From: a virus
Virus record (IMG/VR): IMGVR_UViG_3300029551_000174
Coordinates: 62,603-126,602 of that record
Strand: one strand, 5' to 3'
DNA: 64,000 nucleotides
The notes under the pieces are model-generated. The model searched no databases, was not told the DNA's origin, and was given only the letters and a program-made list of their open reading frames with translations. A program made the position numbers and the translations under genes. Position 1 is the stretch's first letter. Each line of letters starts with the position of its first letter. Below are positions 3,073 through 63,308 of the stretch, piece after piece.

Positions 3073-3999
3073 ATGACAGGATTCAAAAGTGAAAATGTCG
3101 AATTGGAGGCTTTGCCAGTAGCCTCATCAGTTTTAAACAACTTCAAAGAAGGAGGTGTTAGAGTTGTAGAAATTATTGAGCATGACGGCAAGCAATCCGT
3201 GAACGCAAGGGAACTGCACCAAAAGTTGGGCAGCAAGCAGCAGTTTGCTAATTGGATTAGAAATCGTATTGAAAAGTACGGATTCGTTGAAAATCAAGAC
3301 TTTTGCTCATTTAATAAAGTTATTAAACGAGAAAATGGTGCTACAACAGTTACAGAGTATGCCCTTTCGCTAGATATGGCGAAGGAGTTGTGCATGGTTG
3401 AGAACAACGAGAAAGGCAGGATGATTCGCAAGTACTTTATTGAGGTTGAGAAGAAGGCTAGAACACAAAATCCATTTGCAATTCCTCAGACTTATTCTGA
3501 AGCCTTGCTTCTTGCTGCAAACCAAGCAAAGCAAATCGAAAAGCAGCAATTGGCATTGGAGCAGAAGAAAATTGAGAATGACAAGCTGGTTGCAGATGGT
3601 AAGCGCAAGGACGCAACCATAGTACGTATGAAGCCTAAAGAGGTATTCACGGATGCGGTTGCAGGTAGCAAGGGCAATTGCCTAGTTGGTGAGGTTGCGA
3701 AGTTGATAACCCAGAATGGCTACAAGATTGGCGAAAAGCAATTTTTTGCTTGGTTGCGTGATAATGGCTACCTTGGAAAGAAAGGAGAGCGTTACAATAT
3801 TCCTAACCAGCAGTATATGGGTAAGAATCCTTTGTTTTATATCAAGAGAGGTGTGCGACAGGGTGATAATGGAGTGTTGCACACGACAAGTACAACAATG
3901 CTGACACCAAAGGGACAGATTTATTTCGTAAACAAGTTCCTTGGAAAAGGAGGTTTGCAAGGCGATCTGTTTGCGAATGGTGAGGCACACGATAAATAA
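3073..3999 (+). CDS. Phage antirepressor, Bro-N domain + KilA-C domain
   Basis: N-terminus (VEIIEHDGKQSVNARELHQKLGSKQQFANWIRNRIEKYGFVENQDF) is typical of Bro-N. C-terminal KilA-C-like region. Paralogs at 20277..21158 and 16936..17688. Confidence 0.75.
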   Translation: MTGFKSENVELEALPVASSVLNNFKEGGVRVVEIIEHDGKQSVNARELHQKLGSKQQFANWIRNRIEKYGFVENQDFCSFNKVIKRENGATTVTEYALSLDMAKELCMVENNEKGRMIRKYFIEVEKKARTQNPFAIPQTYSEALLLAANQAKQIEKQQLALEQKKIENDKLVADGKRKDATIVRMKPKEVFTDAVAGSKGNCLVGEVAKLITQNGYKIGEKQFFAWLRDNGYLGKKGERYNIPNQQYMGKNPLFYIKRGVRQGDNGVLHTTSTTMLTPKGQIYFVNKFLGKGGLQGDLFANGEAHDK

Positions 4000-5904: not shown

Positions 5905-6378
5905 ATGAAGAAGGTCTTATATTTTATTTCTTTTGTTGTGCTCTTGTTGACTAGTTGCACATCAAAGGAAAACAAAGCAGATGCCCTTATTAAGGCAAGA
6001 GGGTTTGAGTGCGCCAATGTAGAGAAGTTAGAGGAATTTCAATGCAATCCTGCTTCTGCCGAAATGATTATGGTTGCTTATAATAGTTTGTGGCGCAACG
6101 ACTCGTTGTCTAGGAATATGCATTTGTCTAGTAGTAATATCAATTATGTTTATAATGAGATACAAAGACAAGAGCAAAATGCAAAAAATCTGTTGGAAAA
6201 AGCTGATGAGATTAGCATGATTAATAATCACACAGAATTATGTGGTTATTATGTTGTTATCTCTCCCGACAAGATTAATGGTGCGTATATAGACAAAAAT
6301 AGAAAATGTACAAGATATGAAGTCTTCTTCGATAAAGATGTCGAACGCATCATAGGAATACATCCAATTCGTAAATAA
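5905..6378 (+). CDS. Lipoprotein (signal peptide + lipobox LLTSC)
   Basis: MKKVLYFISFVVLLLTSCTSKENK. Moron-like position. Confidence 0.6.
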   Translation: MKKVLYFISFVVLLLTSCTSKENKADALIKARGFECANVEKLEEFQCNPASAEMIMVAYNSLWRNDSLSRNMHLSSSNINYVYNEIQRQEQNAKNLLEKADEISMINNHTELCGYYVVISPDKINGAYIDKNRKCTRYEVFFDKDVERIIGIHPIRK

Positions 6379-6432
6379 ACGAATTAACAGGTTTAGTGTT
6401 GTAAAGTTAGTATATTGACAATTTAAATAAAT

Positions 6433-7179
6433 GTGATTATGAAGAAGAAATTAATAATTGCCATCATCGTAGCCATTCCCTTGTTGATGGTGTGCAGTGG
6501 ATGTGGAAATAAAAACAAACAACCTACTATCGAGGAGCAGATTGCACGTAACAAATATATAGACAAGATTATGTGTAATGATTCATGTAAGGCAAAACGT
6601 GATGTAGTTTTAAAGAAATATTTCGGTTCAAACTATACTTTAGCCAAAAGTAAAATTAACAATTATGACAGCAATTATAATTGGGGATTTTTTATGGACG
6701 ATGGAGTCTTAGATGGCACAATAAATGGAGCAAAGGGAAAATATGAATATCATATAGATATTACGGTTTCTATAGAAAATCCACTCGATTGGACACTTAC
6801 GGAATTTCGTGTAAAGGATATAAAAACACAACATTACGTTTATGTAATAAGAAATGGAAGTGAAGAAAATGTAGAGGAGTATGAGAAGGCAATTACAACG
6901 AGCAATTCAGAAAGTGATATATATGTTTCTGATGAAGACTTATCCGCAATCGAGGATGCTTTGCAAAGAGAATGGGATATTAGTAACGCTTCTAGTGCTG
7001 TAGGTGCAGAAAGTTCAAATGTCTTCAAGGTCAAGAAAGAAAGTGTCAGCGGAAATGAGGTAACTGTTTCTTATTCTTTGCGTTCAACCTATGGTGGTCA
7101 GAAGAAATTCGTTGATTTGCATGGCGTTGTTAAGAAGAATAGTGATGGCTCTTGGAGTGTTGTAAACTTAGGCTATTAA
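6433..7179 (+). CDS. Lipoprotein (lipobox MVCSGCG)
   Basis: Hydrophobic N-terminus followed by Cys. Confidence 0.6.
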   Translation: MIMKKKLIIAIIVAIPLLMVCSGCGNKNKQPTIEEQIARNKYIDKIMCNDSCKAKRDVVLKKYFGSNYTLAKSKINNYDSNYNWGFFMDDGVLDGTINGAKGKYEYHIDITVSIENPLDWTLTEFRVKDIKTQHYVYVIRNGSEENVEEYEKAITTSNSESDIYVSDEDLSAIEDALQREWDISNASSAVGAESSNVFKVKKESVSGNEVTVSYSLRSTYGGQKKFVDLHGVVKKNSDGSWSVVNLGY

Positions 7180-16898: not shown

Positions 16899-16921
16899 CG
16901 TGAGTCACACGTTAAAAACTG
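16899..16921 (+). promoter_or_regulatory. Conserved leader hairpin element (cgtg-agtca-cacg + ttaaaaactg)
   Basis: Motif family. Confidence 0.5.
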
Positions 16922-16935
16922 AAAAGGAAAATAGA

Positions 16936-17688
16936 ATGAATGAGATTAAAGTGATTAACAAGTCAATGCTTCTTGGAAAGGAGATTGACGTGTATGGAAC
17001 TGCTGATGAGCCTTTGTTTAAGGCAAAGGACGTGGCAAGTTGGTTGGATATTCAGAATGTTTCTGACATGATAAAGAATATCGACCAAGATGAAAAGGTG
17101 TTAGATTCAATCTATACCCTTGGTGGAACACAAGAAGTTTGGTTGCTTACTGAGGATGGGGTGTATGAGGTCTTGATGCAAAGCCGTAAGCCAGTAGCCA
17201 AGCAGTTCAAGAAAGGAGTGAAGACCATCTTGAAGTCTATTCGCAAGACAGGTGGCTATTCCGTGGCTGGAACTATTACTGATAAGACGAAGGCAGGCAT
17301 GATTTGGGTGAAAGGCTGCAAGGAGCTTTTGAACTTAAACGATGCATCAACACTTGCATTGATGCAAAAGGTAGCCGAACCTTTAGGCTTGCCAACTCCA
17401 GACTACGTAAGCAGTAAGGGTGTCTTGAAGTCTTTGAGTGTATTGCTTGAAGAGAAGGGCATTGGAATATCTACACAAGCATTTAACAAGCTCCTAGTCA
17501 AGGATGGTTTGTTGCAAGTGCTTTATAGAAAAAGTAGTAAAGGTAAGCAAAAACAATTCAAGAACATTACCGAGAAGGGCTTGCCTTATGGTGAGAACAA
17601 GCAAAACCCAAAGAATCAGTCTGAGACACAGCCTTTGTGGTATGAGGATAAGTTCGATGAGGTTTTGAAGATTGTAGGCTTATTGTAG
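16936..17688 (+). CDS. Bro-N domain antirepressor-like protein
   Basis: ATG start downstream of the hairpin, in place of the track's GTG inside the motif. Bro-N-like N-terminus. The C-terminal part (KVAEPLGLPTPDYVSS...) is homologous to the middle of 20277..21158 (KIAEPLGLPTPDYVSA, ...KGLAYGEN...TQP.WY..KF.EVL.I.G). Confidence 0.65.
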   Translation: MNEIKVINKSMLLGKEIDVYGTADEPLFKAKDVASWLDIQNVSDMIKNIDQDEKVLDSIYTLGGTQEVWLLTEDGVYEVLMQSRKPVAKQFKKGVKTILKSIRKTGGYSVAGTITDKTKAGMIWVKGCKELLNLNDASTLALMQKVAEPLGLPTPDYVSSKGVLKSLSVLLEEKGIGISTQAFNKLLVKDGLLQVLYRKSSKGKQKQFKNITEKGLPYGENKQNPKNQSETQPLWYEDKFDEVLKIVGLL

Positions 17689-20276: not shown

Positions 20277-21158
20277 ATGACATTAGAATTTAACAAAACT
20301 GATGTAAATGTAGAGGCTTTACCAGTAGTCTCAGAGTTCCTTAACAAAGAAAAGAGAGGTATTGAAGTTGTAGAGATTATCGAGCATGACGGCAAACAAG
20401 CCGTGAACGCAAGGGAGCTGCACCAAAAGTTGGGCAGTAAGCAAGACTTTTCAACATGGATTAAAAATCGCATAGAAAAGTATGGATTCGTTGAAAATCA
20501 AGATTTTGAAGTTTTCCACAAAATTATGGAAAACTCAAATGGTGGTCGAAGTCGTATTGAGTATGCCTTATCTTTGGATATGGCAAAGGAGTTGTGTATG
20601 ATAGAGAACAATGAGCAAGGTAGATTGTTCCGTAAGTACTTCATCGAAGTCGAGAAAGTTGCCAGAGTCAAGTACGAGCAGGAGAAGCTGGACAAGAAGG
20701 CTTCCGATTCCTTTGACATCAAGCTGAAGTGGTTGAACTTTCTTCCTGGTTATCTGAACCTCAGCGATGTTTCCAAATTGGCGATGGCTAAGAAAATTGC
20801 TGAACCATTAGGGTTGCCGACACCTGATTATGTGAGCGCACCGAATGGTGCAAAGCATTCCGCTACGGAGTTATTGAAATCTCATGGTGTAGGCTTGTCT
20901 GCTCGAAAGTTCAATGAGTTGGCGGTAAAGGCAGGATTATTGAAGCTAAAAGAGCGCAAGGGTACGAACAAGGTACACAAGTATTGTGAGATTACCAAGA
21001 AAGGATTGGCTTATGGTGAGAACGACATCAACGAGAAGAATATGAATCAAACACAACCACATTGGTATGATTCTAAATTTGGGGAGGTATTGGAAATCAT
21101 CGGCTACAAGTCATCCAAGCAAGTAGATATGTTTGCAAGCGGTGAGACACACGATTAA
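20277..21158 (+). CDS. Phage antirepressor, Bro-N domain protein
   Basis: N-terminus (VEIIEHDGKQAVNARELHQKLGSKQDFSTWIKNRIEKYGFVENQDF) is ~90% identical to 3073..3999. The C-terminus differs and matches 16936..17688. Confidence 0.75.
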   Translation: MTLEFNKTDVNVEALPVVSEFLNKEKRGIEVVEIIEHDGKQAVNARELHQKLGSKQDFSTWIKNRIEKYGFVENQDFEVFHKIMENSNGGRSRIEYALSLDMAKELCMIENNEQGRLFRKYFIEVEKVARVKYEQEKLDKKASDSFDIKLKWLNFLPGYLNLSDVSKLAMAKKIAEPLGLPTPDYVSAPNGAKHSATELLKSHGVGLSARKFNELAVKAGLLKLKERKGTNKVHKYCEITKKGLAYGENDINEKNMNQTQPHWYDSKFGEVLEIIGYKSSKQVDMFASGETHD

Positions 21159-22715: not shown

Positions 22716-22759
22716 TTTTGCGCCTACATATATAATAAGCGTTAAAATGCAAAAGAAAT

Positions 22760-22812
22760 ACATTAAATAATTTGCATATTTCGATAATTCTTTGTATCTT
22801 TGCATCGTAATT
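22760..22812 (+). promoter_or_regulatory. Bacteroidetes promoter (ataatttgca ... tgtatctttgca), part of the repeated promoter-leader cassette
   Basis: Consensus. 22741-22862 is ~97% identical to 44401-44527. Confidence 0.6.
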
Positions 22813-22837
22813 AAGAAACAAGGTTACTAATTAAAAA

Positions 22838-22861
22838 GGTGAGACACACCGTAAAAACTGT
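22838..22861 (+). promoter_or_regulatory. Conserved leader hairpin element (ggtg-agaca-cacc + gtaaaaactgt)
   Basis: Motif family. Confidence 0.55.
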
Positions 22862-22869
22862 GATTCGTT

Positions 22870-36805: not shown

Positions 36806-36858
36806 ATTAAAAGCACTAAAACGTTTGCAAGTTAGCAAAATATTGTTTATCTTTGCAA
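36806..36858 (+). promoter_or_regulatory. Bacteroidetes promoter (aacgtttgca ... tttatctttgca)
   Basis: Consensus. Confidence 0.55.
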
Positions 36859-37626: not shown

Positions 37627-38733
37627 ATGTATAAAAACGAGCACAAGTTCCCTTATAGATGGACTAAAAAAGATGCTAATTTCACAAAAGACAAAGGTAA
37701 GGTGATGTCTTGCTTCTGTTGTGGAGGTGGAAGTTCCTTTGGCTACAAACTAGCTGGCTACGATGTTGTAGCCTGTAATGAGATAGACCCAAAGGTTATG
37801 AAGATGTACTTGAAGAATCACGATGTCAAGTATGCTTTCAATTGTGATATTCGTGAGTTGATTACCAATATCAATATGGGGGGGCATATTATGAAAGAAG
37901 AGCTTCATAATTTGGATATATTGGATGCTAGTTTCCCTTGTTCGGTATTCAGTATTGCAGGTGACCGCCAAAAGGCTTGGGGAAAGGAAAAAGTATTCCG
38001 AGAAGGTCAGAAAGCACAAAGGCTTGACGATTTGGCTTTTTACTCAATCGCCCTCGCTCAAGAACTACAACCAAAGGTAGTGGTTTTTGAGAATGTCCAA
38101 GGTTTGTTGCAAGGTGAAGCTATCGAGTACGTGAAAGAGATTTACAGGCAGATGGATAATGCCGGATATATCTTGCAGCATTGGTTGCTTAATGCACGTA
38201 ATATGGGTGTTCCTCAGAATCGACCTAGGGTGTTCTTTCTAGGATTACGCAAAGACCTTTGCAAGCCGTTTATGGTTCAGAAGGATTTGTTCGAGCGAGT
38301 GCCTAAGATAGATATGGACTTCAACGAGAAAGAAATTGTCTTGGATGAGTTTTCGGACTATAGTGGAAGACAGATTCCAAAAGGAGTGATGAAGTATTGG
38401 GAGCATAGAAACGAGAAAGACAATTCTATCGGTGATATTGTCAAACGGATGGATAATCGTCTTTCTATGTTCAATAATATGTTTCTTAAAAAGGATAAAG
38501 TATGCAATACTATATCAGCAATGGAAGATAGGCTTTTGTATTTTGATAATCCAAGTTATATTTCAGCGCATGATACGATTTTAGCATCAACATTCCCGAT
38601 GGATTATGACTTTAATGGCATGAAGCCTTGGTTTGCTTGCGGAATGTGCGTTCCTCCGGTTATGATGGCGAATGTAGCTGCGAGAATCTGGGATTGTTGG
38701 TTGTCAAAGATTAAAAAGGAGGAATGCGCATGA
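37627..38733 (+). CDS. DNA (cytosine-5)-methyltransferase
   Basis: Motif I FCCGGGSS, PC motif ASFPCSVFSIAG, ENV motif VFENVQGL. Confidence 0.8.
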   Translation: MYKNEHKFPYRWTKKDANFTKDKGKVMSCFCCGGGSSFGYKLAGYDVVACNEIDPKVMKMYLKNHDVKYAFNCDIRELITNINMGGHIMKEELHNLDILDASFPCSVFSIAGDRQKAWGKEKVFREGQKAQRLDDLAFYSIALAQELQPKVVVFENVQGLLQGEAIEYVKEIYRQMDNAGYILQHWLLNARNMGVPQNRPRVFFLGLRKDLCKPFMVQKDLFERVPKIDMDFNEKEIVLDEFSDYSGRQIPKGVMKYWEHRNEKDNSIGDIVKRMDNRLSMFNNMFLKKDKVCNTISAMEDRLLYFDNPSYISAHDTILASTFPMDYDFNGMKPWFACGMCVPPVMMANVAARIWDCWLSKIKKEECA

Positions 38734-39467
38734 TAACAGCAAGTATGACTTCGGGTGAGATGCGTAGAGTACGAAACTTAGATGAAGCTAGAATCTATGA
38801 GTTTCAGATGCGAAAAGCTAATGAGCTTAAACGTGAAATGAGAAAGCAGAACGTAAGACAAATAACAAAGACCTTTGAGTTTGCTACACCGAATGCCGAT
38901 TATTTTATCGTTGTAGGTGTAAAACATGGCGATGTATTTGCTTCCGGTGTGTTCATTTATCTGAAGGAAACTAACGAGTATATTCCTATGAGCAGAAATG
39001 AGGGGTATAGCGAGGATTGTTTTGCTATGAGCGTTCATTTTCTGAAGAGATATGCAGAAAGGTATTTGAAAAAGGATTTGCCGATAGCAAAGATATTACA
39101 AAAGATATATACATCGTTTACAGGTGCGGTTCAGCTTTATAGTGACGACAAGACAAAAAGGGTGGTGTTTGCTATTCCGGAAGGGCTTATACTCACAGAA
39201 TACGAGCAAGAAAAGCGTATCATCCACTACAAAACCTTTGTAAGCATGGATATGCTAAAGAAGACACAGATGCAAAGTTACGAGAAGATTAGTGCATTTC
39301 TAATGGAATCATGTCAGCAAATAGCTATGGCAAGAGAAGCAGGAAATGACGAAAAGCTGGGCGTTGTGTACAGAAGGTTTTATGATGATATTGATTTACT
39401 AGACACTAAGGAGGCGCAAGCCATATATTCAGGTTTCTTTGAAAAAGGAGGTAACAATGAAAGATAA
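38724..39467 (+). CDS. hypothetical protein
   Basis: ORF between the methyltransferases. Confidence 0.45.
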   Translation: MRMITASMTSGEMRRVRNLDEARIYEFQMRKANELKREMRKQNVRQITKTFEFATPNADYFIVVGVKHGDVFASGVFIYLKETNEYIPMSRNEGYSEDCFAMSVHFLKRYAERYLKKDLPIAKILQKIYTSFTGAVQLYSDDKTKRVVFAIPEGLILTEYEQEKRIIHYKTFVSMDMLKKTQMQSYEKISAFLMESCQQIAMAREAGNDEKLGVVYRRFYDDIDLLDTKEAQAIYSGFFEKGGNNER

Positions 39468-39960
39468 ATGTATAACAAGGTTTCTTGGTGATATTAAGCC
39501 TATAAAGAATTACGAAAGGTATTATGTTAGCAAGCTGGGACATGTCTTTACTATTGGGAGAACGTCTCAATTAAAGGAAATCGCACCTTGCAAGACACCA
39601 AAAGGTTATTTGAAGGTATGGCTTTACAAAAACGGAAAGCGAAAGATGTTCTATGTTCATCGTTTGGTAGCGCAGGCATTCTTGGAGAATCCAGATGCAT
39701 TACCAATGGTGAATCATAAGGATTTCGACAAGACGAATAATAACGTAGATAACTTGGAGTATTGTACCGCAAGATACAATGTGATTTATTCTGCTATAGC
39801 AAAGAAAACCTCTTCCGAATACTTGGGTGTTACTTGGAATAAGAGTGTAAGAAAATGGCAAGCTCAGTACCAGGTAGGTAAGAAGAAAACTTATATCGGA
39901 TGCTTTGGTACGCAAGAAGAGGCTCACGAAGCTTATGTTAACGCTACAAAAGAGATTTGA
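39457..39960 (+). CDS. HNH homing endonuclease with NUMOD4-like and AP2 domains
   Basis: YYVSKLGHVF...GYLKV.LYKNGKRKMFYVHRLVAQAF, VNHKDFDKTNNNVDNLEY (HNH_3), EYLGVTWNK..RKWQAQY.VGKKKTYIGCFGTQEEAHEAY (AP2). Confidence 0.7.
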   Translation: MKDKCITRFLGDIKPIKNYERYYVSKLGHVFTIGRTSQLKEIAPCKTPKGYLKVWLYKNGKRKMFYVHRLVAQAFLENPDALPMVNHKDFDKTNNNVDNLEYCTARYNVIYSAIAKKTSSEYLGVTWNKSVRKWQAQYQVGKKKTYIGCFGTQEEAHEAYVNATKEI

Positions 39961-39961
39961 C

Positions 39962-40675
39962 ATGCTTAAATTTGATAGAATATACAATTCCGACTGTATA
40001 GAAGGAATGAAACAAATAGAGACCAGGAAAGTAGATTTAATTGTTACTGACCCACCATATTGTATCTCCTATAAGACCGGATGGAGAGCAGACGACCATC
40101 GCTTTTCGAAGGAAATACTCAATGACGATAATGAGCAATTGATTATTGATTATATGAGCGAATGCTACCGGATTTTGAAGGATGATAGTGCTGCTTATAT
40201 CTTCTGTAGTGCCAAAACATTGGACTTTTTTATGCAACAAGCGAGGAACGCAGGGTTTACCATTAAGAATGTGCTCATTTGGCGAAAGAACAACCATACG
40301 GCTGGAGATTTAGAGGCGCAATATGGGCAATGTTACGAGCCAATCCTGTACTTGAATAAAGGCAGACGAACCATAAACGGAAAGCGTTTGGAGGACGTAT
40401 GGGACTTTGATAGAGTTCCATCTGATAAATTGGTACATCAGAAAGAGAAACCAATTCCCTTGCTTATGCAATGCATCTTGAAATCATCGGACGAAGGAGA
40501 TTTGGTATTTGATGGTTTTATGGGTTCAGCAAGTACTGCTTTGGCTTGTATGCGAACAAACAGGAATTTCCTTGGCTTTGAATTAGACGGGGAATATTTC
40601 AAGGTAGCACAAAAAAGAATCAAAGAAGAAATGTTTAATCAAAAAGATATGTTTGGATATGTTGGAGATAGATAA
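39962..40675 (+). CDS. DNA methyltransferase, N6-adenine/N4-cytosine (beta class, DPPY)
   Basis: IVTDPPY motif IV. C-terminal FDGFMGSASTALAC motif I. Confidence 0.75.
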   Translation: MLKFDRIYNSDCIEGMKQIETRKVDLIVTDPPYCISYKTGWRADDHRFSKEILNDDNEQLIIDYMSECYRILKDDSAAYIFCSAKTLDFFMQQARNAGFTIKNVLIWRKNNHTAGDLEAQYGQCYEPILYLNKGRRTINGKRLEDVWDFDRVPSDKLVHQKEKPIPLLMQCILKSSDEGDLVFDGFMGSASTALACMRTNRNFLGFELDGEYFKVAQKRIKEEMFNQKDMFGYVGDR

Positions 40676-41405
40676 GATTTATCAAGTTGATTGTCTGGAT
40701 GGTATGAGCAAGATTGATGACAAATCTGTCTCGCTTATACTCACAGACCCTCCATATGAAATTTCAAGGAATTCCAATTATGCAAAGTCCGCTCCTACTG
40801 GTAAAGATACTGATAGATTCCGCATATCTATCGACTTTGGAGACTGGGATAAACAGGAAGCATTTGATATAGGCTCTATGATAAAAGAATCCTACAGGTG
40901 CTTGAAAGATGGTGGATATATAGTTTGTTTCTATGATTTGTGGAAGATTGGGGTCGTAAAGGATGCGATGATTAATGTCGGATTTAAACAAATTAGATTT
41001 ATTGAATGGATAAAAACAAATCCTGTTCCAATAAATAGTAAGACAAACTATCTCACAAACGCAAGAGAGGTCGCTGTGTGTGGGGTGAAAGGTAAAAATC
41101 CTATCTTTAAAAGCGAATATGACAATGGAGTATATAGCTTTCCAATCTGTCGTGATAAGGGGAGATTTCATCCTACCCAGAAGCCTGTTAGTCTTTTCAG
41201 AAGCATTATAAACAAGCATTCCTGCAAAGGAGATATTGTACTAGATTGCTGTATAGGTAGTGGAACTACGGCTATTGCGTGTATTCAAGAAAATCGTAAT
41301 TTTATTGGTTTTGAAACTAATAGAGAGTTTTACGACAAAGCAAACGAGAGAATAGAAAATGAATTAATGATAAAGCAAGATAGTTTATTTAGTAATGAAA
41401 GTTAG
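40653..41405 (+). CDS. DNA methyltransferase, N6-adenine/N4-cytosine (beta class, DPPY)
   Basis: ILTDPPYEIS and C-terminal VLDCCIGSGTTAIAC. Confidence 0.75.
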   Translation: MDMLEIDKIYQVDCLDGMSKIDDKSVSLILTDPPYEISRNSNYAKSAPTGKDTDRFRISIDFGDWDKQEAFDIGSMIKESYRCLKDGGYIVCFYDLWKIGVVKDAMINVGFKQIRFIEWIKTNPVPINSKTNYLTNAREVAVCGVKGKNPIFKSEYDNGVYSFPICRDKGRFHPTQKPVSLFRSIINKHSCKGDIVLDCCIGSGTTAIACIQENRNFIGFETNREFYDKANERIENELMIKQDSLFSNES

Positions 41406-42130
41406 TGGGTGATATGATGGAGCTAAATAGAATTTATCAAGGTGATTGCCGAAAGCTTCTAAAGCAGCTAGACGATGAATGTATAGACCTAGTATGCTCT
41501 GATGTTGCTTATCCGGTACAAGCTAGAGGTGGGCGCAGTAGTATGAGTGGATATTGGACGGATTCTCAAACTAGAAAAGGTAAGATATTCAAGAGTAATG
41601 ACATAGATATTTCGGAGTATATCAACGAACTATATCGAGTACTAAAGGATAAGACTCATTGCTATCTTATGTGTAACGACTATAATCTGATGCACTTTCT
41701 AGATGAGATAGGACGGAGTGAGTTTCACTTCACAAAGTGTTTAATATGGGATAAATGCACTAAGGTGTGTGGAACGTATTATATGAACCAAAAAGAGTAT
41801 ATCATTATGCTTCGTAAGGGAGGTGGAAAGCCAATTAATGAGTTTGGCACATCTGACATTCTGAGTGTTCCTATTCCAACCAACAAACGCAGGGATAAAG
41901 AAGGATTGATCAATCAGACCGAAAAACCAGTTAAGTTGATGGAGATTCTAATCAGAAACTCAACAAATGTAGGTGATGTTGTTCTTGACCCATTTATGGG
42001 GAGTGGCACAACAGCAAGGGCTTGCGTTAATCTTGAAAGAAAGTATATAGGCTTCGAAATAGACCAGCGGCAAGTAGATTTTTCCAATAACGAATTAAAG
42101 AGCATGAGTAGGCAATTAAGTCTGTTTTAA
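41405..42130 (+). CDS. DNA methyltransferase-like protein with atypical motif IV (SDVAYP) and intact motif I
   Basis: LVCSDVAYPV in place of DPPY. C-terminal VLDPFMGSGTTARAC. Confidence 0.6.
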   Translation: MGDMMELNRIYQGDCRKLLKQLDDECIDLVCSDVAYPVQARGGRSSMSGYWTDSQTRKGKIFKSNDIDISEYINELYRVLKDKTHCYLMCNDYNLMHFLDEIGRSEFHFTKCLIWDKCTKVCGTYYMNQKEYIIMLRKGGGKPINEFGTSDILSVPIPTNKRRDKEGLINQTEKPVKLMEILIRNSTNVGDVVLDPFMGSGTTARACVNLERKYIGFEIDQRQVDFSNNELKSMSRQLSLF

Positions 42131-42134
42131 AACA

Positions 42135-42359
42135 ATGGATATGAGTATGGTTATTCAATGTAACACAGTTGTAAGAAATGGGAATAAAGAGATAACGGAT
42201 GCTCTTATAAAAGCCATTAAGGATGAAGCCTCGAAGCGTGGGTTGGTACGTGATGAATTGGTTGAATATTGCAACCAATTGTTAAGGAAAGGCGAAATCA
42301 AGGCTTGTATTAAGAATTTGTTTTATAATTTCAAACGTTATTTTTGGAGGTATTATTGA
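42135..42359 (+). CDS. hypothetical protein
   Basis: ORF. Confidence 0.4.
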   Translation: MDMSMVIQCNTVVRNGNKEITDALIKAIKDEASKRGLVRDELVEYCNQLLRKGEIKACIKNLFYNFKRYFWRYY

Positions 42360-42360
42360 T

Positions 42361-42990
42361 ATGAGAAGAAGAAAGTTGAACAAGTCTCCAGTGCTAGGTC
42401 TCTGCGGATTTGTTGTCGGTTACGAGTGCAAGGAAAAGGGAATAAAGCTGATGGAGTGCGATAAGGCGCAAGCTGATGCAATCATAGTTCCTCATCACTT
42501 TTCACACAAGGTAACGAAGAATAGTTGCTTGAATCTTTTGGTATTGTACAAAGGCAAGATTAGGGGTGCTATGCAAATTGGGTATGGAATTCGACCGCAT
42601 ATCAAGACTGAAAAGGGCGAAGTGTTGGATTACCATCAAGTGAGGGAATTTGACCGAATGTGGTTGTCTGATGATATGCCAAAGTATAGCGAAACCATTT
42701 GCCTTTCTCTCTTACACAAGTATATTAGGGCAACGCATAAGGAAATCAAGTATCTTATATCTTATGCCGATACGTCCATAGGTAACAAGGGAACTATATA
42801 TAAAGCTGCAAACTATGAGCATATTGATACCATTAAGGCAGATTTCTATGTATTACCAAGTGGTGAGCGTGTGCATCCGGTAACTATGTGGCATCGGCAC
42901 AAGACAAGAGTGTGGGAGGTTCTGACGGAACTATACCCAGGAATAAAAAAGGCAGAAGGGTTTCAACTTAAATTTCTGAAGAAGTTATGA
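42361..42990 (+). CDS. hypothetical protein (candidate DNA-modification accessory)
   Basis: 209-aa ORF immediately downstream of the methyltransferase block. Confidence 0.45.
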   Translation: MRRRKLNKSPVLGLCGFVVGYECKEKGIKLMECDKAQADAIIVPHHFSHKVTKNSCLNLLVLYKGKIRGAMQIGYGIRPHIKTEKGEVLDYHQVREFDRMWLSDDMPKYSETICLSLLHKYIRATHKEIKYLISYADTSIGNKGTIYKAANYEHIDTIKADFYVLPSGERVHPVTMWHRHKTRVWEVLTELYPGIKKAEGFQLKFLKKL

Positions 42991-43202
42991 AGAAAAGAAA
43001 TAAATATATTCCTTGTCATTTGCATCCAGATCCTGAGCATTGGGTTAGAAAAGGTCAATCTTGGAAGGCGAAGGTCGCTTATGAAAACGAGGATGATGCT
43101 TGGGAATTTCTGAATCAGAATCCGAAGTTAAAGGCACTCGGTTGGCATCCTTACTTATGCAAGGTTTGCTCAAAGTGGCATATTGGTAGGTTACATAATT
43201 AA
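42987..43202 (+). CDS. Small Cys/His-rich (zinc-finger-like) protein
   Basis: CHLH...CKVCSKWH. Confidence 0.4.
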   Translation: MKKRNKYIPCHLHPDPEHWVRKGQSWKAKVAYENEDDAWEFLNQNPKLKALGWHPYLCKVCSKWHIGRLHN

Positions 43203-43207
43203 CGATT

Positions 43208-43594
43208 ATGAAAAAAGAAGATAGACTTAAAATATATCGCAAATACGATGGGCATTGTGCTTATTGCGGTAAGAGTATAGAGTATAAGGATATGCAGGTT
43301 GACCATCTTGTTCCGAATAATCGAGGTTGTTACTCTCGGTGGAGCGACAAGGAGGGAAGGTTTGTCGTTTTTCATGGCGATGACTGTATGGAGAACTATA
43401 TGCCATCTTGCAGGTCTTGTAATCTTCGTAAGCGTGATATGAGTTTGGAACAATTTCGCTCAGAGATTACTAGACAGGCTAAAGGATTGCTTAATGGTAA
43501 GGCTTCTTTCCAAGTAAAGATGTCGCTTGCTTATGGTTTAATCGAAGAGCACTTTGATAGACAAATTGAGTTCTACTTTGAGAAATTTAAATAA
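43208..43594 (+). CDS. HNH endonuclease
   Basis: HCAYCGK...DHLVPNNRG...CRSCNLRK (HNHc). Confidence 0.7.
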   Translation: MKKEDRLKIYRKYDGHCAYCGKSIEYKDMQVDHLVPNNRGCYSRWSDKEGRFVVFHGDDCMENYMPSCRSCNLRKRDMSLEQFRSEITRQAKGLLNGKASFQVKMSLAYGLIEEHFDRQIEFYFEKFK

Positions 43595-43602
43595 TAGGGA
43601 AT

Positions 43603-43887
43603 ATGAAGAAGTTTAAGAAGTCGATAGAGATTAGCACTGAGAATATTTCAGACGTTCTTCAAGTGCCAATTGTTACAAGTTTATACAAGACTAAGAATTT
43701 TAAAAATCCTTGCCTTGAAGGTCGTAGCGTTCCTTATGATACTATAGCATTGATGTATGTTCATATCGAAGGCTTTGATAGCGATTTTTGTATTGACCAA
43801 GGCAACATGCTCGCTCTTGATATTTGTGATACTTGGTATGCCTTTTCAAAAGCAGGGTGGGAGAAACATAAAAACGATGAGGTATGA
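43603..43887 (+). CDS. hypothetical protein
   Basis: ORF. Confidence 0.4.
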   Translation: MKKFKKSIEISTENISDVLQVPIVTSLYKTKNFKNPCLEGRSVPYDTIALMYVHIEGFDSDFCIDQGNMLALDICDTWYAFSKAGWEKHKNDEV

Positions 43888-44291
43888 AGAAGAAAGGATA
43901 TTACGAATACGACCCTGTTATCTATCCAAGAATGTTATGTGTCGCTATTGGAATGAACCAAGAGGACGCTAACAAGTGTTTTGAAGGTAGAAAAGGTGAG
44001 GTTTTGAAGGTTGATTTCTCTAATTCTAACGCAATAACCTACGATGAAGTTAGGGAAAAGTCGAATAAGAAGCTTTGTTCATTTATTAATTTTGCAAGCA
44101 AGGATTCTATGAGGATGGGGATTTGTTGCCATGAAGCTTCTCATGCCTGCGATGCCATCGAGGATGCTATTGGTATGGAACACGGAGGCGAGCCTTCTGC
44201 CTACTTGATTGGTTGGATTGCGTCTTGCATCAACAAGGCACGTTTGGGTATTGGTGATTTCGTTGAAATTAAAGATAAGGAAGAAAAGTAG
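43884..44291 (+). CDS. Small HExxH zinc metallopeptidase-like protein
   Basis: HEASHACDAIEDAIGMEHGGE (HExxH plus downstream E). Confidence 0.5.
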   Translation: MKKKGYYEYDPVIYPRMLCVAIGMNQEDANKCFEGRKGEVLKVDFSNSNAITYDEVREKSNKKLCSFINFASKDSMRMGICCHEASHACDAIEDAIGMEHGGEPSAYLIGWIASCINKARLGIGDFVEIKDKEEK

Positions 44292-44419
44292 CCCAAAGAC
44301 AAAATACCTTTGAGTGCTTTGCCCCATCACTATATATAATAATGTAGTGGTGGGGATTTTTGTGTTAACATCAGCAAATTATCCGTCTGTATTATTATAG
44401 TATGTTAAATACTAAAAGA

Positions 44420-44472
44420 AACACATTAAATAGTTTGCATATTTCGATTATTCTTTGTATCTTTGCATCGTA
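44420..44472 (+). promoter_or_regulatory. Bacteroidetes promoter, copy of the 22760 promoter-leader cassette
   Basis: 44401-44527 is ~97% identical to 22741-22862. Confidence 0.6.
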
Positions 44473-44500
44473 ATTAAGAAACAAGGTTACTAATTAAAAA

Positions 44501-44524
44501 GGTGAGACACACCTTAAAAACTGT
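44501..44524 (+). promoter_or_regulatory. Conserved leader hairpin element (ggtg-agaca-cacc + ttaaaaactgt)
   Basis: Motif family. Confidence 0.55.
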
Positions 44525-44533
44525 AATGAGAAA

Positions 44534-53117: not shown

Positions 53118-54323
53118 ATGAATGAGTTTACAAAGGTCTTTGCAAAGACAATAGAAGATGAAGCTATCAAGCAGATAGAAGTTCTATCCAATAGCGATGC
53201 TTACTCTGGTTGTGAAATAAGAATAATGCCAGATTGTCACGCAGGTAAAGGCTGTACTATTGGCACGGTGATAGAGCTGGACAAAAGAGTAGTTCCTAAC
53301 ACCGTAGGAGTAGATATAGGTTGTGGAATGAAAGTCGTTAGACTTGGTAAAGTTAATATTAATCTACAGAAATTTGACGAAGCAGTCAATACGTTGATTC
53401 CATCTGGTTTCAATATCAACGAAGAAGCTTCTGCATTCATACATGGATTAGTTGACGGCAATATGTTTGGTAAATTTCGTTCTTGGGATAGTATTAATGG
53501 GATGGATATAGTATATCGTTCTGTTGGTTCTCTTGGTGGGGGTAATCACTTTATAGAGTTAGATGCAAACGAAGAGGGTGAGAAGTTTCTTGTGATACAT
53601 ACAGGAAGTAGAAACCTTGGAGTTAGGGTATGCAACTATTACCAAAACCTTGCTTACCAGTATTGCCACAAGAAGGCTGCCGATAAGTCGGAGGTTATTG
53701 CCAAGCTAAAAAGCGAAGGCAGAGAAAATGAGATACAGAGTGTTATTAAGTCATTAGGTACTAAAAATATAAGCAAGGAACTTTCTTACTTGGAAGGTGA
53801 TTTGCTCAATGACTACCTCAATGATATGCGCATAGTTCAAAAATATGCTGAACAAAACAGAATGATTATCGCCAACAGACTTGTAAATGCTTTAGGTGTA
53901 GATATTGATGCTAATTCAGATAAGTATTCTTTTACAACCATTCACAACTATATAGATACAGACAAGGGTATATTGCGAAAGGGAGCTATCAGTGCAAAAA
54001 AGGATGAGGTAGTCATTATCCCAATGAATATGCGTGATGGTTCTCTTATCTGCAAGGGAAAAGGTAACAAAGATTGGCTATGCTCTGCCCCTCATGGCGC
54101 AGGTAGATTAATGTCTCGTACACAGGCAAAGAAAGAGTTATCTATGGATTCTTACAAGAATGAAATGAATGGTATTTATTCCACATCAGTTTGTGAAGAA
54201 ACCATTGATGAAGCACCTATGGCATACAAGCCAACCGAAGAAATTGTTGAGTTAATCAAACCTACGGTTGATGTCATTGATGTCATTAAGCCAATTTACA
54301 ACTTTAAAGCAAAATCATTATGA
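53118..54323 (+). CDS. rtcB: RNA ligase RtcB (3'-phosphate/5'-OH RNA ligase)
   Basis: Metal-binding motifs IMPDCHAGKGCTIGTV and GGNHFIEL. 401 aa. Confidence 0.8.
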   Translation: MNEFTKVFAKTIEDEAIKQIEVLSNSDAYSGCEIRIMPDCHAGKGCTIGTVIELDKRVVPNTVGVDIGCGMKVVRLGKVNINLQKFDEAVNTLIPSGFNINEEASAFIHGLVDGNMFGKFRSWDSINGMDIVYRSVGSLGGGNHFIELDANEEGEKFLVIHTGSRNLGVRVCNYYQNLAYQYCHKKAADKSEVIAKLKSEGRENEIQSVIKSLGTKNISKELSYLEGDLLNDYLNDMRIVQKYAEQNRMIIANRLVNALGVDIDANSDKYSFTTIHNYIDTDKGILRKGAISAKKDEVVIIPMNMRDGSLICKGKGNKDWLCSAPHGAGRLMSRTQAKKELSMDSYKNEMNGIYSTSVCEETIDEAPMAYKPTEEIVELIKPTVDVIDVIKPIYNFKAKSL

Positions 54324-57573: not shown

Positions 57574-58116
57574 TCATTTTATTTCGATAAGAGTTAAAAT
57601 GCAATAACCCAACAAGTCTTTATAGCTGTCAAGAATAGGTTCTTCTTTAGCATCCTCGTTCAAAGTAAGCAAAGAGCAAATACGATTAATCTTCTCTTGC
57701 AAATGACCGAATGCATACGGATAACCATCCTTAGAGAAACATTCCGAGAAAGCGTTTCCATACCGCTTATTCTTGGTTTTGAAAAGCTCGATTTGCGACC
57801 CGATGATGTCGTTATAATCAGAAACAATATACCAAGAGAGCGTAAGCAAGGCTTCCATCGCCATTACGCTGATATGATTTCGTAAGGTTTCTTTGTCTTC
57901 AGAAGATGCTCGAATCTCATACATAAGACGAAGGAAATTGGCTGCGCTTGAAAATAATCCGAGCTTTCCGAAGTCCTCCCTTAGAGACGAAACGAAAGTG
58001 GCATTATCCTTGCATTCAATCATGTCTGCCAAATGTCTAATCTCAAAGATATACTTGTTAGCATATTCGCTACACCCATTGTTATTTTGTTCCACCATGT
58101 CCGTATCCTCCTCCAC
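57574..58116 (-). CDS. hypothetical protein
   Basis: ORF. Confidence 0.45.
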   Translation of the reverse strand: MEEDTDMVEQNNNGCSEYANKYIFEIRHLADMIECKDNATFVSSLREDFGKLGLFSSAANFLRLMYEIRASSEDKETLRNHISVMAMEALLTLSWYIVSDYNDIIGSQIELFKTKNKRYGNAFSECFSKDGYPYAFGHLQEKINRICSLLTLNEDAKEEPILDSYKDLLGYCILTLIEIK

Positions 58117-62135: not shown

Positions 62136-63308
62136 TTAAAAGAATGTATTTGTTAATTGTTTATTTCCACTCATTATTACCCACTTTCCTTTGCCGTTTT
62201 GATCTAGCAATTTCAAGTCTTCAACCTTCCCGAACCTCTCATAAGTACCGCAGAGGTCAACAAACCAAGGCTGTTTCCCTTTTGATAGTCTAAGAAGTCT
62301 TCCTACAACTTGATAGTATTGCGCTAATGAGCGTGTTGGCTTTGCATACACGACCGTATCTAACTCCGGATAGTCAAAACCTACGACTAATATTTGACTA
62401 TTTACCAATACTTTAGTCTGACCATTACGGAAACGCTCGATGATTGCTTCACGTTCTTTTGGAGGAGTCTCTCCGCAAACCATTTCACAGTTAGGTATGG
62501 AATATGTCAGCTTCTGAGCTTCCTTAACGAACTTCGTAAAAACCAAGATACCTTTACGCTGTCCACCTCGTTTAGGATTAAGCAATCTTTTAACAACACT
62601 AACTAGCCATCCGTACAAATCTACACGTTCATATTCTTGCTTGACACTTTGGTCAGTGTAATCACGGCAAGTTGAATTGAGCTGCAAGTTTCCTTCGTTC
62701 CATTGTGGTGGCGGGCATTTGTAATAGTTCGGAAGACAGATATATCCGTTTTTTGCCATATCCTCAACTTGAACATAGTAAATAAGCTCCTTGAAAATCT
62801 TGTCTCTACTTCTTGTCAGAAACTTCAGTATGCTACCATAGTTCTGATAGGAATACAAACGGAAAGGTGTTGCGGTTAAACCTATGACCTTACTCTTTAA
62901 TTTATCAAGAAACTCCTTATACATGCCGGATTCAGGTTTTACTAAATGAACCTCATCAATTAATATGTATTTAAAGTCTGTAAACAATTCGGGATGTCCT
63001 TTCACGCTACCAATTGTAGCAAAAGTAACATCGCTGATTTCTTTTGATTTAAAGCTAGCGGAATAGATGCTGGCATTATCAAATCCATAAGAACAATACT
63101 TCTTGTAGTTTTGTTCCAAAATCTCCTTAGTAGGAGAGAACACAAGCACTTTATCCTTGAGCCTAGCAGCTATATCTGCTAAAATCAATGATTTGCCCGA
63201 TGCAGTAGGAAGCACTTCCAGAGCGTTCCAGTTTTTCTTCTTATCCAAGAAAAACTCAACAGCCTTCTTGCTTGCCTCTTCTTGATATGGTCTTAATTTA
63301 AACTTCAT
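62136..63308 (-). CDS. Superfamily-2 DNA helicase (DEAD/DEAH-box type)
   Basis: Motif I PTASGKS, motif II ILIDEVH, motif III GLTATPFR. Confidence 0.8.
   Translation of the reverse strand: MKFKLRPYQEEASKKAVEFFLDKKKNWNALEVLPTASGKSLILADIAARLKDKVLVFSPTKEILEQNYKKYCSYGFDNASIYSASFKSKEISDVTFATIGSVKGHPELFTDFKYILIDEVHLVKPESGMYKEFLDKLKSKVIGLTATPFRLYSYQNYGSILKFLTRSRDKIFKELIYYVQVEDMAKNGYICLPNYYKCPPPQWNEGNLQLNSTCRDYTDQSVKQEYERVDLYGWLVSVVKRLLNPKRGGQRKGILVFTKFVKEAQKLTYSIPNCEMVCGETPPKEREAIIERFRNGQTKVLVNSQILVVGFDYPELDTVVYAKPTRSLAQYYQVVGRLLRLSKGKQPWFVDLCGTYERFGKVEDLKLLDQNGKGKWVIMSGNKQLTNTFF

Follow-up and report, generated by a model that had tools for sequence, protein, structure and literature searches.

A 64,000-nt stretch of the IMG/VR virus record IMGVR_UViG_3300029551_000174 (positions 62,603 to 126,602; hereafter the window, to whose positions all coordinates refer) was analysed. 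It carries an operon that probably marks new phage DNA with several chemical groups against host restriction, by means of five modifying enzymes of known families. The unit encodes an enzyme with the C5-cytosine methyltransferase fold (the C5 enzyme), three mutually distant beta-class amino-methyltransferases (MTases 1, 2 and 3, numbered in gene order) and a Mom-family GNAT enzyme, and all of these are under purifying selection. MTase 3 is also called the DVAY enzyme. As judged from their alignments, three of the five (the C5 enzyme, the DVAY enzyme and the Mom homologue) depart from the textbook at catalytic positions. The anti-restriction armour is of an ordinary kind, built from known enzyme families. 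In terms of predicted protein sequence, its novelty lies at the sub-family level: a motif IV without prolines, a Mom protein without the Mu residue R151 and a C5 enzyme related to CmoX with a Met.

Open reading frames (ORFs) were assigned to families with the Pfam, PHROG, NCBIfam and PADLOC profile libraries (Table 1). The four methyltransferase genes reported by a first-pass annotation of the sequence were all recovered, the one at 37627 as PF00145 and those at 39962, 40653 and 41405 as PF01555. MTases 1, 2 and 3 scored 128.5, 122.8 and 109 bits against PF01555 (cut-off 26.7). All three have the beta-class motif order, with D-x-x-Y at residues 30-36, a motif X of the HxxxKP type near residue 170 and FxGxG near residue 200. 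Their pairwise identity is 30-34%; they are therefore no recent duplicates, and the four methyltransferases, the C5 enzyme included, stand too far apart to share one specificity. NCBIfam matches of the methyltransferases lay far below the equivalog cut-offs, and no target motif could therefore be assigned to them. The 209-aa protein encoded downstream of MTase 3, left unassigned at first, belongs to the Mom family. The multi-layer DNA-modification and anti-restriction island that had been proposed is supported, and is richer than claimed thanks to this Mom-type enzyme.

The newly made DNA of the phage would carry several different chemical groups, and host restriction enzymes would be unable to cut it. 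Each methyltransferase would flip its target base and transfer the methyl group of S-adenosylmethionine (AdoMet), giving 5-methylcytosine (m5C), N6-methyladenine and/or N4-methylcytosine in different sequence motifs. The Mom homologue would move an aminoacyl group (glycine in Mu) from a charged tRNA onto the N6 of adenine.

The genes between 36824 and 44355 all point the same way and appear to form a single, tightly packed transcription unit, in which most neighbours overlap or are separated by 1-8 nt. The unit lies directly 3' of the head genes (capsid gene at 32652-33740), and the + strand carries all genes from about 32 kb to about 57 kb. The window has 17 matches to the Bacteroidetes promoter consensus TTTG-N17-23-TAnnTTTG where 3.5 would be expected, a result reached in none of 100 shuffles; a scan of the window for sigma-70 promoters gave no enrichment (30 found, 30.4 expected). 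By analogy with Mu mom, the unit would be expressed late and the modification would follow replication. The phage is a Bacteroidota (Segatella/Prevotella-type) gut phage. A contig of the same phage is included in a Segatella copri metagenome-assembled genome, homologues of the C5 enzyme are present in Bacteroides and Flavobacterium phages, and the best GenBank match of the phage is a 'Bacteriophage sp.' of human faecal origin that carries no annotation.

Several points weigh against this interpretation of the operon. The canonical Asn of motif X is absent from the C5 enzyme, which has Met instead. The Mom homologue lacks R151 and has Thr for S124 and Arg for W181. In the literature searched, there was no characterised enzyme that has other residues for both motif IV prolines. 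Finally, the proposed promoter and terminator of the unit are pattern matches only.

The beta-class methyltransferases and the DVAY motif

The closest known system to MTases 1-3 is that of the beta-class PF01555 orphan phage methyltransferases, whose solved relatives are CcrM (6PBD), M1.HpyAVI (5HFJ) and M.MboIIA (1G60). The enzymes of the window resemble these in having motif IV first and motif I last, a length of about 240 aa, the AdoMet contacts and no partner restriction enzyme; tandem runs of several PF01555 genes are common in phages, as here. Two of them differ from the textbook or solved enzymes: MTase 1 has GSAST instead of GSGTT in motif I, and MTase 3 has D-V-A-Y for D-P-P-Y and an Asn for the His at the AdoMet carboxylate.

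The prolines of motif IV normally stiffen its loop. The textbook form (D/N/S)-P-P-(Y/F/W) is present in MTases 1 and 2 and absent from MTase 3, which keeps the Asp and the Tyr. The SDVAY of MTase 3 aligns column by column with the TDPPY of MTases 1 and 2, and its motif I (DPFMGSGTT) is intact, as the first-pass annotation had noted for the SDVAYP enzyme. The suggestion made there that the enzyme might be inactive does not hold in the sense of a decaying gene. SDVAY was found in 78 of 78 copies of the lineage (84-100% protein identity), and the ratio of non-synonymous to synonymous substitution rates (dN/dS) against the L001 allele was 0.050 (dN 0.076, dS 1.52), with values of 0.06-0.15 for the neighbouring genes. 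The AdoMet contacts D8, D29, H168, S198, T200 and E216 of M1.HpyAVI (5HFJ) were mutated by Ma et al. (2016, PMC5173035). When aligned to 5HFJ, the DVAY enzyme keeps all of these but one (D14, D33, S200, T202 and E218), H168 being replaced by N170. From these sequence comparisons, a decaying pseudogene is excluded. The enzyme would methylate like its neighbours, since Asp33 and Tyr36, the side chains of motif IV chemistry, are kept.

Homologues of the DVAY enzyme were searched for in a collection of 5.8 billion proteins. This gave 967 homologues, and the motif was tallied in the best 120: 24 have SDVAY, 11 TDVPY, one SDVPY and one TDPAY, and the rest have DPPY. Among these best 120 of 967, SDVAY is held by every full-length match of at least 75% identity and by several at 54-62%. 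A HMMER search of 1.84 billion cluster representatives gave 150 relatives at 29-80% identity (most at 33-45%), of which 135 cover the motif. Pro-Pro is kept in 99 representatives and absent from 36 (27%), where DCPY, DVPY, DIPY, DPAY, DSPY, DVAY, DAPY, DPTY, DNPY and DYPY occur. The Asp is present in 133 of the 135, and the fourth residue is Tyr or Phe in every one. The textbook motif IV is therefore too narrow for this family. The label 'atypical' given earlier to the DVAY enzyme stands against the textbook and falls within the family, given these 36 representatives and relatives with DLPY and DIPY.

Exchange within the family may take place inside single genes. P0065, a protein encoded on a 108-kb ENA contig, is a mosaic enzyme: its N-terminus has DPPY, and a stretch comprising motif X and the last part of the target-recognition region is identical to that of the DVAY lineage. 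This suggests that DPPY and DVAY N-termini are interchangeable and that segments are swapped within genes. A co-variation of DVAY with H170N, S172T, Y223Q and a 2-aa insert was considered and rejected, because DPPY sisters have these features and one SDVAY protein does not. Monophyly of SDVAY was likewise rejected: a rough neighbour-joining tree with the motif masked gave at least four SDVAY groups. The tree supports no more than an easily changing motif.

It is very doubtful that the DVAY protein is a catalytically dead partner, comparable to METTL14 or MTA9, that pairs with a neighbouring DPPY enzyme for DNA binding. Beta-class enzymes do act as dimers (PMC5173035), the inactive partners METTL14 (EPPL) and ciliate MTA9 are recognised by an eroded motif IV (PMC7544214), and the DVAY gene always adjoins MTase 1 in the lineage (73 of 73 loci). 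On the other hand, SDVAY orthologues at 54-62% identity are the sole methyltransferase of their loci, where they adjoin a resolvase, ArdA or DUF4494 and where Mom is absent. In addition, the DVAY enzyme retains the motif IV Asp and Tyr together with five of the six AdoMet contacts, D-x-x-Y variants are scattered in the family tree beside DPPY sisters, and HindIII-family enzymes with DIPY are active (PMC12294265). A dead partner subunit is thus unlikely from the available alignments.

It is also unlikely, to a lesser degree, that the enzyme is active with an acceptance altered by a looser motif IV loop, such as N4-cytosine for N6-adenine, a relaxed specificity or an already modified base (for example Mom-modified adenine). 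The change from Thr-Asp-Pro-Pro to Ser-Asp-Val-Ala is kept over sequences only 54-100% identical, the DVAY gene is directly upstream of Mom in the lineage (it abuts Mom in L003), and no paper on a methyltransferase with a DVAY, DVPY or DPAY motif was found in the literature searched. Against this, DPPY, DVPY and DVAY replace one another among close relatives that share their C-terminal half, a pattern resembling near-neutral exchange, and H170N, S172T and Y223Q are a lineage background common to the DPPY sisters. A linkage of SDVAY with Mom was rejected because SDVAY orthologues occur without Mom. Read most simply, the sequence data make the DVAY enzyme an active methyltransferase, from a family that can do without the motif IV prolines.

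One solitary SDVAY methyltransferase lies at about 8001-8714 of L005, a 13.9-kb Logan contig. Its neighbours are PAPS-reductase-like, dCTP deaminase/dUTPase, nucleoside deoxyribosyltransferase-like, Tad2-like, ArdA and resolvase genes, an anti-defence and nucleotide-metabolism setting unlike that of the window.

The plasticity of the block was examined in related loci, namely 80 IMG/VR loci with a Mom protein 97-100% identical to that of the window, of which 73 cover MTases 1 to 3 (compared loci and contigs are labelled L001, L003, L005, L014-L017, L043 and L048). MTase 1 is present in all 73. MTase 2 is a gene-sized presence/absence cassette, found in 30 loci and missing from 43. The gap in L001 corresponds exactly to 40696-41410 of the window (MTase 2), and about 40 bases are common to the two flanking alignments. 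The methyltransferase genes have similar 5' ends, which encode a conserved N-terminal IYQ-DC motif, and we infer from the sequences that the cassette may be gained and lost through recombination at these conserved 5' ends. In the form without MTase 2, the synonymous divergence of the DVAY allele is far above that of its flanks. In L014, L043 and L048, methyltransferases have a second insertion spot, at the junction of the 71-aa gene with the 128-aa HNH gene. The extra beta-class enzymes found there have DLPY in L014 (7909-8682) and L048 (6877 onwards) and DIPY in L043 (7205 onwards), the last being 166 aa only and possibly truncated. Two deletion forms of the operon were found, each in two independent samples. 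L014 and L015 lack 39055-41976, and the N-terminus of the 245-aa protein is fused to the C-terminus of the DVAY gene in a 158-aa ORF (6001-6477). L016 and L017 lack 39422-42463, and the 245-aa protein is fused to Mom in a 402-aa ORF (2098-3306 in L016).

The Mom homologue

The 209-aa protein matched PHROG 1384 ('Mom-like DNA modification protein') at 7e-32, Mu Mom at 6e-30 with 34% identity, and PDB 8BV8 at 2.3e-23. An AlphaFold model was built with 31 homologues (predicted local distance difference test score, pLDDT, 88; predicted template modelling score 0.81). Its top fold match was 8BV8, with template modelling scores of 0.75/0.71 over the full length, and the next GNAT proteins scored about 0.47. 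Helices 173-180 and 185-191 of the model stand before the last strand, in the place of the Mom-specific insertion. In Mu Mom this insertion is helix-turn-helix-like and essential (PMC13219725). The protein is a member of the Mom family by sequence and predicted fold.

In double-stranded DNA, Mu Mom attaches the glycine of Gly-tRNA(Gly) to adenine at N6; N6-carbamoylmethyl-adenine then arises by rearrangement of the adduct (Silva et al., 2026, PMC13219725). Residues H58, R111, D149 and Y159 of Mu Mom are kept in the homologue, and R111 and D149, which are catalytic, are invariant in 120 members of the sub-family. Y59 is Phe, and the dimer residue W48 is not kept. The catalytic S124 is Thr (113 Thr and seven Ser in the 120 members), R151, which is essential in Mu, is Ser (117 Ser and three Thr), and the position of W181 is Arg. 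Because R151, S124 and W181 are replaced, the exact product of the homologue is uncertain. These replacements in a conserved sub-family, and the low identity to Mu Mom, would fit an adduct other than that of Mu Mom, made from another aminoacyl-tRNA or another acyl donor. Such a change of product is improbable, since the homologue retains H58, R111, D149 and Y159 as well as the fold and the two helices of the Mom-specific insertion, and the Thr in place of Ser at S124 still carries a hydroxyl.

The homologue thus shares with Mu Mom (8BV8) the Pfam family, the GNAT fold, the helical insertion and the equivalents of the four residues above, and in both phages the head genes are directly followed by a unit that has the gene at its end. 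It differs in its size (209 aa against 241 aa) and in being embedded in a methyltransferase operon. Mu also has the translational activator Com, and no Com-like protein is present here. The 71-aa Cys/His-rich protein was tried as a Com analogue and rejected: its E-value against Mu Com was 0.72, and its gene lies downstream of Mom rather than overlapping its start. In Mu-like prophages, mom is replaced by the non-specific adenine methyltransferases Hia5, Hin1523 and Nma1821 (PMC3299994). Those loci are similar to that of the window in having adenine methyltransferase homologues, which take the anti-restriction role of Mom at the mom locus. They have a methyltransferase instead of Mom, whereas methyltransferases and Mom occur together here.

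Five tRNA genes were found at 28326-28763: Glu-ttc, Gln-ttg, Tyr-gta, Lys-ttt and a tRNA-like sequence at 28614-28688 with a two-base anticodon. As no tRNA-Gly is present in this cluster, it is no obvious feed of Mom. Together with an RtcB RNA ligase gene (53118-54323, 5e-63), the tRNA genes resemble a kit for tRNA supply and repair, directed against host anticodon nucleases.

The C5 enzyme and its relation to CmoX

Motifs I (FCCGGG), IV (SFPC), VI (FENV) and VIII (QNRPR) of C5 methyltransferases are all present in the C5 enzyme. Its motif X is G-M-C-V-P-P, with Met at the position of the canonical Asn (N304 of M.HhaI). The closest solved relative was SpCmoX (8YF3), which matched at 9.7e-34 over residues 7-361 (2-371 of SpCmoX); the match to M.HaeIII reached 2.7e-16 with partial coverage. 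SpCmoX is a phage enzyme that transfers the carboxymethyl moiety of carboxy-S-adenosylmethionine to the C5 of cytosine (Yang et al., 2025, PMC12783734). Its hallmarks are an SPPC motif and Arg350, which binds the carboxylate of the cofactor and stands in motif X in place of Asn304 of M.HhaI (PMC12783734). In the residue alignment the C5 enzyme has SFPC for SPPC and Met at R350. Its membership of CmoX was rejected, since both published hallmarks are missing. Homologues at 49-51% identity, from Bacteroides, Flavobacterium and Rhodobacteraceae phages, have SPPC and G-M-S-V-P-P. By their sequences, the 'Gly-Met' C5 proteins form an uncharacterised sister group of CmoX.

The C5 enzyme and CmoX are alike in their full-length sequence similarity and in the replacement of the canonical motif-X Asn, and they are unlike in the residues just given and in their surroundings: no CmoA-type methyltransferase family, no CmoY and no Asn-synthetase-type ligase was found among the best 25 of 31 families of the 103 window ORFs. 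A CmoX-like activity, in which 5-carboxymethylcytosine would serve as an anchor for later modification (perhaps through the gene pair at 29507-31051), is extremely unlikely. SpCmoX is by far the best solved relative of the C5 enzyme, the cofactor-selecting Asn is replaced, and an Amidoligase_2 gene with an adjoining class-II glutamine amidotransferase gene is present in the window. These points are outweighed by the missing hallmarks, by the missing CmoA and ligase families and by M.MedI, in which the same motif-X Asn is changed to Lys and methylation is kept (PMC12015181). For these reasons the C5 enzyme was retained as an m5C methyltransferase, which is its likely function by homology if plain methyl transfer is assumed. 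Homologues of the amidoligase and amidotransferase were found in Porphyromonas, Arthrobacter and Bacillus phages, with no overlap with the carriers of C5 homologues. For this reason, a tie between the C5 enzyme and the amidoligase pair was rejected.

The HNH-AP2 nuclease, neighbouring genes and biological meaning

The first-pass annotation had placed an HNH/NUMOD4/AP2 homing endonuclease between the methyltransferases and had seen in it a selfish invasion of methyltransferase genes. The domains were confirmed: HNH_3 (27.9 bits) and NUMOD4 (23.8 bits) score above their cut-offs, and AP2 (27.7 bits) below its cut-off of 33.3. The protein matched PHROG 59 at 4.6e-39 and the PADLOC 'homing endonuclease' profile at 3.7e-20, and it combines an HNH domain with a DNA-binding module as free-standing homing endonucleases do. 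The gene is not inserted directly between methyltransferases, because the 245-aa gene intervenes. It overlaps the 245-aa gene by 11 nt and abuts MTase 1, and no gene is interrupted.

Compared with the free-standing phage HNH-AP2 homing endonucleases (PHROG 59/99), the nuclease has the same domain set, size and intergenic placement. It differs in having no presence/absence polymorphism, no identified target gene and a stable inheritance in the lineage. The gene was found in 72 of 73 related loci, so that there is no sign of recent invasion, and it occupies the same place in a lineage at only 67% identity. Its dN/dS of 0.06-0.08 indicates purifying selection. Among the related loci, no nuclease-free allele of an otherwise intact site was found; the only alleles without the gene are large multi-gene deletions that also take out methyltransferases. 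No second HNH-AP2 copy was found in the window. These observations make it unlikely that the methyltransferase block was invaded recently by this gene as an active, selfish homing endonuclease, as its typical domain set, its position wedged amid overlapping and abutting gene ends and the recombinational plasticity of the surrounding block might suggest. It would be a long-resident free-standing nuclease gene and no recent invader.

The 245-aa protein gave no match in Pfam, PHROG, NCBIfam or PADLOC. Its 76 homologues (63-98% identical) are found only in this phage group, and its dN/dS is 0.15. Structure prediction from 16 aligned sequences gave no usable AlphaFold model (pLDDT 39.6). Downstream of Mom, the 128-aa HNH nuclease is present in 34 of 36 related loci. 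The HExxH 'mini-peptidase' reported earlier does contain HEASH; as a peptidase it found no support in Pfam, and its best match was phrog_1365 (unknown function, 1.4e-9). Of the two ASCH proteins that had been announced, only one window ORF reaches ASCH at E <= 1e-3.

Table 1. Positions of the genes and signals of the modification unit and of related features in the window
Feature	Position	Strand	Match or remark
Amidoligase_2 gene	29507-30442		3.3e-33; between tRNA cluster and head genes
Class-II glutamine amidotransferase gene	30518-31051		6.8e-6; adjoins Amidoligase_2 gene
Bacteroidetes-type promoter-like site (TTTG ... TAnnTTTG)	36824-36855	+	Pattern match; between structural genes and C5 gene
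C5-cytosine methyltransferase-fold enzyme, 368 aa	37627-38733	+	PF00145, 4.3e-40, 138.5 bits
Lineage-specific 245-aa protein	38730-39467	+	Start overlaps C5 stop (ATGA); start set by homologue alignment
Free-standing HNH_3 + AP2 (+NUMOD4) nuclease, 167 aa	39457-39960	+	Pfam 1.8e-6 / 3.3e-6 / 5.4e-5
MTase 1, 237 aa, motif IV TDPPY, motif I GSAST	39962-40675	+	PF01555, 4.8e-37
MTase 2, 248 aa (250 aa from TTG 40653), TDPPY	40659-41405	+	PF01555, 2.6e-35
MTase 3 (DVAY enzyme), 238 aa (241 aa from GTG 41405), motif IV SDVAY	41414-42130	+	PF01555, 4.4e-31
74-aa protein	42135-42359	+	No family match; absent from lineage L003
Weaker promoter-like match	42317-42346		Pattern match; inside 74-aa gene, just before Mom
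Mom-family GNAT enzyme, 209 aa	42361-42990	+	PF25680, 2.6e-35, 122.4 bits (cut-off 27.1)
71-aa Cys/His-rich protein	42987-43202	+	Start overlaps Mom stop; no family match
128-aa HNH nuclease	43208-43594	+	PF01844, 2.2e-7; PHROG 2118, 1e-35
94-aa gene and 135-aa HEASH gene	43603-44291	+	No Pfam match for either
Intrinsic-terminator-like hairpin, closes the unit	44322-44355	+	14-bp stem, then T run
Promoter-like site 3' of the hairpin	44434-44465		Pattern match

The promoter-like site 3' of the hairpin has a near-identical 32-mer counterpart at 22771-22802. Both 32-mers lie within a repeat of about 140 bp (22727-22864 and about 44390-44530), detected from cross-matches of L001 and L014, and they look like repeated intergenic promoter modules. 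At about 56.9-57.0 kb, the coding strand and the GC skew change sign, and genes on the - strand (helicase, DUF6633, DUF1599) continue to the end of the window. This switch may mark an early/replication module, or else a divergent promoter or origin region. In this divergent arm, a 180-aa DUF1599 protein ('nucleotide modification associated domain 1', 1.7e-5) is encoded at 57574-58116 (-), and its gene adjoins a ResIII/DEAD helicase gene (62136-63308). The window also encodes three paralogous AntA/ANT antirepressors and a Bro-N protein, scattered at 668-1270, 3073-3999, 20277-21158 and 16900-17688, together with two WYL_2 proteins.

It is quite unlikely that at least one of the C5 enzyme with its Met, the DVAY enzyme and the R151-less Mom enzyme does something other than textbook methylation or momylation and so produces an undescribed DNA mark. 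If true, this mark could be a different aminoacyl-derived adenine adduct or the methylation of an already hypermodified base. The survey indicates that a large phage family can do without the 'invariant' Pro-Pro of motif IV, though not without the Asp and the Tyr; the natural motif IV variants are a ready panel for testing what the prolines do. The Mom sub-family with its other active-site residues offers a direct test of the 2026 Mom mechanism, and a CmoX sister group whose cofactor-selecting position is Met is now on hand. For annotation, a 'hypothetical 209-aa protein' beside methyltransferases deserves a check against the new Mom profile. The phage lineage is very common in human-gut viromes (80 near-identical loci from one collection). 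Its operon would stack at least three chemically different DNA marks, which would help to account for the way such phages withstand the dense restriction systems of Bacteroidota.

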